Positions 33,714 through 34,048 of a stretch of DNA of 64,000 nt are shown in pieces. Where the stretch lies: assembly GCF_002854065.1 (NCBI RefSeq), contig NZ_CP024147.1, one strand, 5' to 3'. Position numbers and translations under genes: made by a program. The notes below the pieces were generated by a model. It did not search any database, had not been told where the DNA came from, and worked only from the letters and a program-made list of their open reading frames with translations. Origin of the DNA: Escherichia coli (GTDB taxonomy: Bacteria > Pseudomonadota > Gammaproteobacteria > Enterobacterales > Enterobacteriaceae). How positions within the stretch are numbered: the first letter of the stretch is position 1; the number at the start of each line of letters is the position of its first letter.

Positions 33714-33725
33714 TTTAATGTTATA

Positions 33726-33749
33726 TCTGCCCCGCTAAAACGGGGCAGA
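33726..33749 (+). terminator. Perfect dyad after the GH13 fragment
   Basis: atctgccccg-ctaaaa-cggggcagat, 10-bp perfect arms; no strong T-run follows. Confidence 0.4.
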
Positions 33750-34048
33750 TAATATGTTTAGTTTACTGACGGTCATTTTGCAGTGAAGCCATTTACTGTT
33801 TTTTATCGACCAGATAATCTGTTCTCTGATGGTAATTCCCCCCTAACCTGTTGCTTTAGTTATTCATTTCCTGTCTCACTTTGCCTTAATACCCTACGTT
33901 AAATGTTACTAATTTGTTGTTTTTGATCACAATAAGTAAACAATATGTCGCTTTTGTGCGCATTTTTCAGAAATGTAGATATTTTTAGATTATGGCTACG
34001 AAATGAGCATCACGCACTCTCCCTGAAACCTCAAGAGGATCGCTTCTG

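Follow-up and report, generated by a model that had tools for sequence, protein, structure and literature searches.

A stem-loop at the 3' end of the GH13 (ygaQ) gene upstream of csiD in Escherichia coli, a probable Rho-independent terminator hairpin

The GH13 gene and its genomic context

The stretch of Escherichia coli DNA analysed here (64,000 nucleotides of contig NZ_CP024147.1, hereafter the window) carries the ssrA gene encoding tmRNA (29455-29817), a P4-type integrase gene (29985-31262), an IS1 element of 768 bp (31483-32250) and a ygaQ-type gene of the alpha-amylase family GH13 (32251..33713, + strand). The latter was identified from its open reading frame and translation and from the RefSeq annotation of orthologous loci. 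The csiD(glaH)-lhgO-gabD genes are located downstream of GH13, with the csiD ATG at 34049. The GH13 gene is truncated at its 5' end by IS1 (junction at 32250/32251). As it starts mid-gene at 32251, the order ssrA, integrase, IS1 and GH13 implies an IS1-associated deletion, which would have removed everything present in K-12 between intA and the middle of ygaQ, ileY included. We searched for this IS1/GH13 junction in the collection of complete E. coli genomes, none of which reached 80% of the 1.3-kb query. An IS1 inside or beside the alpha-amylase gene was nevertheless observed in several strains.

In its intact form, the GH13 gene encodes a protein of 750 amino acids with matches to the Pfam domains Alpha-amylase and Alpha-amylase_C. 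Several strains carry such an intact gene, followed by the same hairpin as the one described below (e.g. L004, 4062-6314), while the K-12 and O157 copies are pseudogenes with internal stops. The GC content of the gene is 0.377, vs. 0.509 for the whole window. The Grainger laboratory took ygaQ as an example of a gene that was acquired horizontally, is repressed by H-NS and contains a sense intragenic promoter (PMC7229825). The gene has also been reported to encode a nuclease conferring mitomycin C resistance (PMC4725251), a report that sits oddly with the glycoside-hydrolase fold. The literature on ygaQ yielded nothing on its terminator, and one paper on riboswitch entropy names ygaQ only as the label of a neighbouring operon. 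The GH13 family itself is extremely narrow: it was found in E. coli, in E. albertii (an orthologue at the same locus, with 60% amino acid identity) and in one metagenomic relative (L007, 34% identity), where the gene adjoins an InvH-like gene.

Structure and distribution of the inverted repeat

A repeat search of the window identified an inverted repeat just behind GH13, on the + strand. Its left arm (33724..33734, TATCTGCCCCG) and its right arm (33741..33751, CGGGGCAGATA) are 11 nt long and 100% complementary, separated by a 6-nt loop (33735..33740, CTAAAA), and 7 of the 11 pairs are G-C. The right arm is followed by an interrupted and weak U-tract (33752..33766, ATATGTTTAGTTTAC). The TAA stop codon of GH13 occupies positions 33711-33713 and the stem begins 10 nt 3' of it; from the right arm to the csiD/glaH ATG, there are 297 nt. 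The sequence-only reading of this locus had reported a 10-bp inverted repeat, 13 bp after the GH13 stop and about 300 bp upstream of csiD. This 10-bp form (33725-33750) does exist within the version with 11-nt arms, and the distance to csiD agrees with ours, but the distance to the stop is shorter than was stated (10 nt, or 11 nt for the 10-bp form).

Such a structure is rarely produced by chance. The pattern of the palindrome was recovered in 0 of 100 shuffles, and the number of perfect hairpins with loops of 3-10 nt expected per dinucleotide-shuffled window is 0.43 for 10-nt arms and 0.07 for 11-nt arms. The real window contains about nine perfect hairpin loci of this size. The palindrome is not a product of chance, yet it is one of a common class, and several of the perfect hairpins of the window are obvious terminators. 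The folding energy of the stem in RNA form is about -20.7 kcal/mol, with a z-score of about -4 relative to shuffles, whichever strand is considered. Scanning positions 33000-34600 against Rfam 15 with a permissive E-value returned only chance-level matches (E about 1-8, far below the gathering scores). Around the palindrome, promoter-like matches are no more frequent than by chance (2 found vs. 1.9 expected).

We then looked for the palindrome in other genomes, using a 54-nt query around it. It was detected in 4126 of 5426 complete E. coli genomes, at one place in each, and this place is always under or next to an alpha-amylase annotation, at the 3' end of GH13. In MG1655, the csiD upstream region, whose comparison had been proposed along with the sequence-only reading, carries the same hairpin (2788660-2788687) between the ygaQ pseudogene (2786397-2788649) and glaH (2788985), with ATAAAA as its loop. 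The search for other copies, also proposed there, gave none: no second copy exists in the window (up to 3 mismatches allowed, and with blastn-short as well), and none of the 5426 E. coli genomes has one on a plasmid or elsewhere. By comparison, the csiD part of the region was matched in 5383 genomes. The palindrome was found in none of the csiD upstream regions that lack GH13, whether in E. coli 536, in about 1,250 other E. coli genomes, or in Salmonella, C. freundii and C. koseri. The glaH gene of E. coli 536 directly follows ssrA, and the homology of 536-type strains to the window begins only at about 33855, i.e. about 100 bp past the hairpin. The genes next to csiD on its upstream side are different ones in Salmonella, C. 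freundii and C. koseri.

The csiD promoter is conserved across these genera from about 145 bp before the ATG, which corresponds to positions 33905-34048 or so of the window; the hairpin lies about 150 bp upstream of this block. The primary-site consensus of the regulator CsiR consists of TTGTN5TTTT and ATGTN5TTTT, six nucleotides apart (Knorr et al., PMC6265302). Exact matches to it, i.e. predicted sites, are located at 33954-33966 and 33973-33985, and the best CRP-like 22-mer, also a predicted site, at 33913-33934. The CsiR and CRP-like sites therefore lie 160-230 bp downstream of the palindrome. As the palindrome is absent from csiD upstream regions without GH13 and travels with the 3' end of GH13, it can be assigned to the GH13 side of the junction, outside the csiD regulatory region as judged from sequence conservation. 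The sequence-only reading had itself named such an outcome as its refutation.

Two strains show other arrangements upstream of glaH. In E. coli QML220614, isolated from a yak (L010, 2440-2530), the right end of an IS1 (…GGAGTCATTACC) is joined directly to the final four loop bases of the hairpin. Nothing of GH13 or of the left arm is present any more, and just AAAACGGGGCAGATA… is left upstream of glaH. This strain is a natural deletion variant of the hairpin, usable for testing the insulation of csiD. In E. coli 536, the interval from ssrA to glaH contains a terminator of canonical sequence (AAAGCCCGCTGATGCGGGCTTTTTTATT; L002, about 3645-3670), some 520 bp upstream of the glaH ATG. The GH13-less architecture of 536 thus likewise has a predicted terminator upstream of the csiD promoter.

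Several other hairpins of the window end without a T-run. A perfect hairpin with 13-nt arms (TTATCAGCACCCA-TTA-TGGGTGCTGATAA) is found at 31268-31296, 5 nt after the stop of the integrase gene (31262). It is followed by the tail CTCACCTATAGGTAA (score -2.03, on the scale defined below) and represents a second U-less 3' hairpin of the island. Further perfect hairpins with arms of at least 10 nt and no T-run are located at 12886-12913, 23928-23955, 29968-29998 and 44867-44889; the one at 12886 (GTGCCGGATGATGTGAATCATCCGGCAC) looks REP-like.

Sister alleles and the tail of the hairpin

Two diverged alleles of the locus retain the pairing of both arms. In E. albertii, the hairpin reads ACTCTGCCCTG-N10-CAGGGTAGAGT and is followed by the tail TATTTTTTGTTG. 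The second allele was found when the E. albertii region served as blastn query on E. coli genomes. It consists of a GH13 3' remnant of an E. albertii-like allele and is present in 20 E. coli genomes, E2348/69 among them (L011, 3105-3185, and 19 further genomes). This remnant has 126 codons, with about 78% DNA identity to E. albertii, and its hairpin reads CTTTGCCCTG-N10-CAGGGCAAAG, followed by the tail TGTTTTTTATTTTT. In both sister alleles, the stem begins 17 nt after the stop codon, vs. 10 nt in the window allele, and the loop has 10 nt (TATAAATTCT) instead of 6. Aligned with the interrupted U-tract of the window, both present canonical T-runs, TATTTTTTGTTGTAA in E. albertii and TGTTTTTTATTTTT in E2348/69. 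The E2348/69 allele also differs in the region of the CRP site of the csiD promoter, where TTTTTAATCGCAATAAG replaces TTTTGATCACAATAAG; this change might alter CRP dependence.

The alignment of the alleles (A3) allowed us to follow the 11 pairs of the stem. Four of them change on both sides, one passes from G-C to G-U and six are invariant. In this alignment, 98.2% of the cells are paired; sliding the 3' partners by 1-3 columns lowers this share to 35-53%. In E. albertii, the G-U pair breaks the symmetry of the DNA and keeps the pairing of the RNA, and it fits an RNA of the + strand only. This test covers three allele lineages. A scan of genome contigs for GH13 relatives returned E. albertii alone, and with relatives limited to this species a broad covariation analysis is not possible. 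Within E. coli, the sampled haplotypes, among them the K-12 type (2731 genomes) and the window type (916 genomes), vary in the loop and the tail, never in the stem. This invariance is not significant, as only about 1.6 variable sites would be expected by chance in the stem, where 0 were observed.

We then scored the tails with a TransTermHP-type score, taking the formula and the candidate threshold of -2.5 from PMC1852404. The window tail ATATGTTTAGTTTAC has 5 T in its first 8 nt and 8 T in its 15 nt. Its score of -2.62 only just passes the threshold and is equalled by 16% of all 15-mers of the window and by 21% of those in the local AT-rich DNA. Given this interrupted U-tract and a score matched by so many 15-mers, efficient intrinsic termination is doubtful for the window allele, and the earlier remark that no T-run follows the palindrome is essentially correct for it. 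On the minus strand, the tail scores -2.44 and falls short of the threshold, so that the better tail is that of the + strand. The E. albertii tail scores -4.42, which corresponds to the top 0.4% of the 15-mers of the window, and that of E2348/69 between -3.31 and -4.58. A consensus terminator scan flagged the window hairpin as terminator-like. The same scan made no call at the E. albertii and E2348/69 loci, its loop limit being 8 nt and their loops having 10 nt; their hairpins and T-runs were read directly in the sequence and then tail-scored.

A run of six T (33802-33807, CTGTTTTTTATCG) is located 50 nt past the hairpin, with a weak stem of 4-5 bp before it (GCAGT…ACTGT). E. albertii has the motif TTTTTATCG too, at the equivalent position (L006, about 6301-6309). 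This run may be a weak back-up terminator or merely a conserved AT-rich spacer.

Readings of the hairpin and consequences for csiD

The palindrome is probably the 3'-terminal stem-loop of the GH13 (ygaQ) transcript, i.e. a Rho-independent terminator hairpin acting on the + strand. This reading builds directly on the observed structure and position of the hairpin, its linkage to GH13, the covariation across alleles and the canonical U-tracts of the sister alleles. The E. albertii and E2348/69 hairpins show every sequence attribute expected of a canonical intrinsic terminator. Taken together, the compensatory changes including a G-U pair, the altered loop length and the T-runs are the signature of an intrinsic terminator and not of an operator. 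The sequence-only reading had preferred not to see a terminator here, a view at odds with the canonical T-runs and compensatory pairing of the sister alleles. It had also suggested an RNA stabiliser, and a role at the RNA level is still viable.

According to the terminator reading, RNA polymerase would pass the GH13 stop codon and transcribe the 11-bp stem with its 7 G-C pairs, and the transcript of the sister alleles would be released as this stem forms beside the U-tract. The main E. coli allele, which is that of the window, has an interrupted U-tract, and termination there is probably only partial or leaky; the hairpin would then mainly mark and protect the 3' end of the mRNA and may block 3'-5' exonucleases. 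Such a block to these enzymes is documented in E. coli for stem-loops that lack a U-tract and close Rho-terminated transcripts (Dar & Sorek 2018, PMC6061677). In addition, the hairpin could give the csiD promoter (controlled by sigma-S, CRP and CsiR), about 250 bp downstream, some insulation from sense transcription. This transcription would come from the AT-rich, H-NS-silenced GH13 gene, through the intragenic ygaQ promoter, and in this genome also from the upstream IS1. In the Term-seq supplements of Adams et al. 2021, neither a 3' end at MG1655 positions 27886xx-27887xx nor an entry for ygaQ or csiD is listed, as expected for a silent pseudogene, although this still gives no support to the reading. 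Moreover, as GH13 is 5'-truncated here, the element may be a relic that now sees little transcription.

The documented block to exonucleases leads to a plausible alternative for the window allele, namely a purely protective 3' stem-loop: Rho would release the polymerase downstream and 3'-5' exonucleases would trim the RNA back to the hairpin, which would fix and stabilise the mature 3' end. The RNA stabiliser of the sequence-only reading corresponds to this alternative. Like the stem-loops of Rho-terminated transcripts (PMC6061677), the window allele combines a stable structure at the 3' end, without a U-rich stretch (tail score of merely -2.62), with a mild excess of C over G downstream. The C/G ratio is 1.9-2.0 at 33792-33891, i.e. 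40-140 nt further on, as rut regions tend to be; such a skew is weak evidence, compatible with Rho loading without showing it. The distant relative L007 has, after its GH13 stop, an 11-bp perfect hairpin with no T-run either (tail score -1.82). However, canonical U-tracts directly follow the homologous stem in E. albertii and E2348/69, unlike in Rho-protective stem-loops, which points to an intrinsic-terminator ancestry or function and to a genuine terminator of this type in at least two alleles out of three. As a full account of the hairpin, pure protection is therefore unlikely. An inert relic, i.e. the former terminator of an intact GH13 persisting here only for lack of decay time, is a good deal harder to defend. 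The truncation of GH13 at 32251 by IS1 and the internal stops of the K-12 and O157 copies would agree with it, as would a degenerate U-tract whose positions vary between E. coli haplotypes and a stem invariance that is not significant. Against this, several strains combine the same hairpin with an intact GH13 gene (750 aa), and E2348/69 has retained hairpin and T-run with only a 126-codon remnant left. The sense intragenic promoter documented in ygaQ and the upstream IS1 also mean that transcription can still reach the hairpin.

Readings in which the palindrome acts as DNA fare worse. A protein-binding operator contributing to the sigma-S/cAMP-CRP regulation of csiD, as the sequence-only reading had considered in view of the csiD upstream architecture, has in its favour a perfect dyad symmetry, a position upstream of csiD, and the action of H-NS and Lrp reported on the csiD promoter (PMC6265302). 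The palindrome indeed shares this position and a dyad or repeat character with the CRP and CsiR operators of csiD. However, these operators lie inside the promoter conserved across genera (CsiR consensus and CRP-like sites at 33913-33985), whereas the palindrome is located further upstream, in DNA that is linked to GH13 and missing from many csiD loci. It is not found upstream of csiD in 536-type strains, Salmonella, C. freundii and C. koseri, all of which possess the conserved csiD promoter. The arm spacing shifts from 6 to 10 bp between alleles, and this 4-nt difference would turn the two halves of any site bound by a dimeric protein relative to each other. The G-U pair of E. albertii, a G-T pair in the DNA, breaks the symmetry that an operator would need while RNA pairing is kept, and GC-rich contiguous arms of 11 bp are typical of RNA stems. 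We consider this operator highly improbable. Scarcely any credit can be given to a repeated or mobile sequence, whether REP/BIME-like, a transposon end or an att site at the right edge of the ssrA-linked island. The palindrome does lie near the boundary between island-type sequence and the conserved csiD promoter, and the yak isolate has an IS1 end within the hairpin loop. Like REP/BIME elements, which can stabilise upstream mRNA, it is GC-rich, imperfectly AT-flanked and intergenic after a gene end. It differs from them by its single copy per genome, its absence from plasmids and the lack of a REP consensus, of an Rfam match and of any family in the window or in the 5426 genomes. A repeat family was rejected, as the only copies in the window and in these genomes are those at the GH13 3' end. 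The idea of an island boundary or att site was also rejected, with no ssrA 3'-end repeat near the hairpin and a 536-type breakpoint about 100 bp downstream of it (about 33855).

Like the intrinsic terminators of Enterobacteria, the window hairpin has a GC-rich stem and a short loop and lies on the sense strand after a stop codon; as in these terminators, the stem is conserved across the alleles by compensatory substitutions, and a T-run directly follows it in the sister alleles. The window allele differs from canonical intrinsic terminators by its interrupted U-tract AUAUGUUUAGUUU (-2.62 for a threshold of -2.5), and its efficiency is probably low. The palindrome is, within this reading, an ordinary though undescribed terminator of a well-known kind, with nothing pointing to a new mechanism. 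For annotation, it is not to be counted in the csiD regulatory region, which starts about 145 bp before the ATG. The locus offers a small and clean example of a horizontally acquired gene whose diverged alleles have kept a terminator stem through compensatory changes and differ in their U-tract.

We also consider, as a rather speculative and quite unlikely extension, that the main E. coli allele has kept the stem while its U-tract decayed, turning a strong terminator into a leaky one or into a processing or protection hairpin, so that sense transcription from the H-NS-silenced GH13 gene, or in this genome from the upstream IS1, could read through into the csiD promoter. If true, this would result in sigma-S-independent expression of csiD-lhgO-gabDTP, or in promoter occlusion, once H-NS silencing is relieved. 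The effect would then differ among lineages with the weak allele, with the strong allele (E2348/69 and E. albertii type) and with no hairpin (536 type). [quoted passage not shown]
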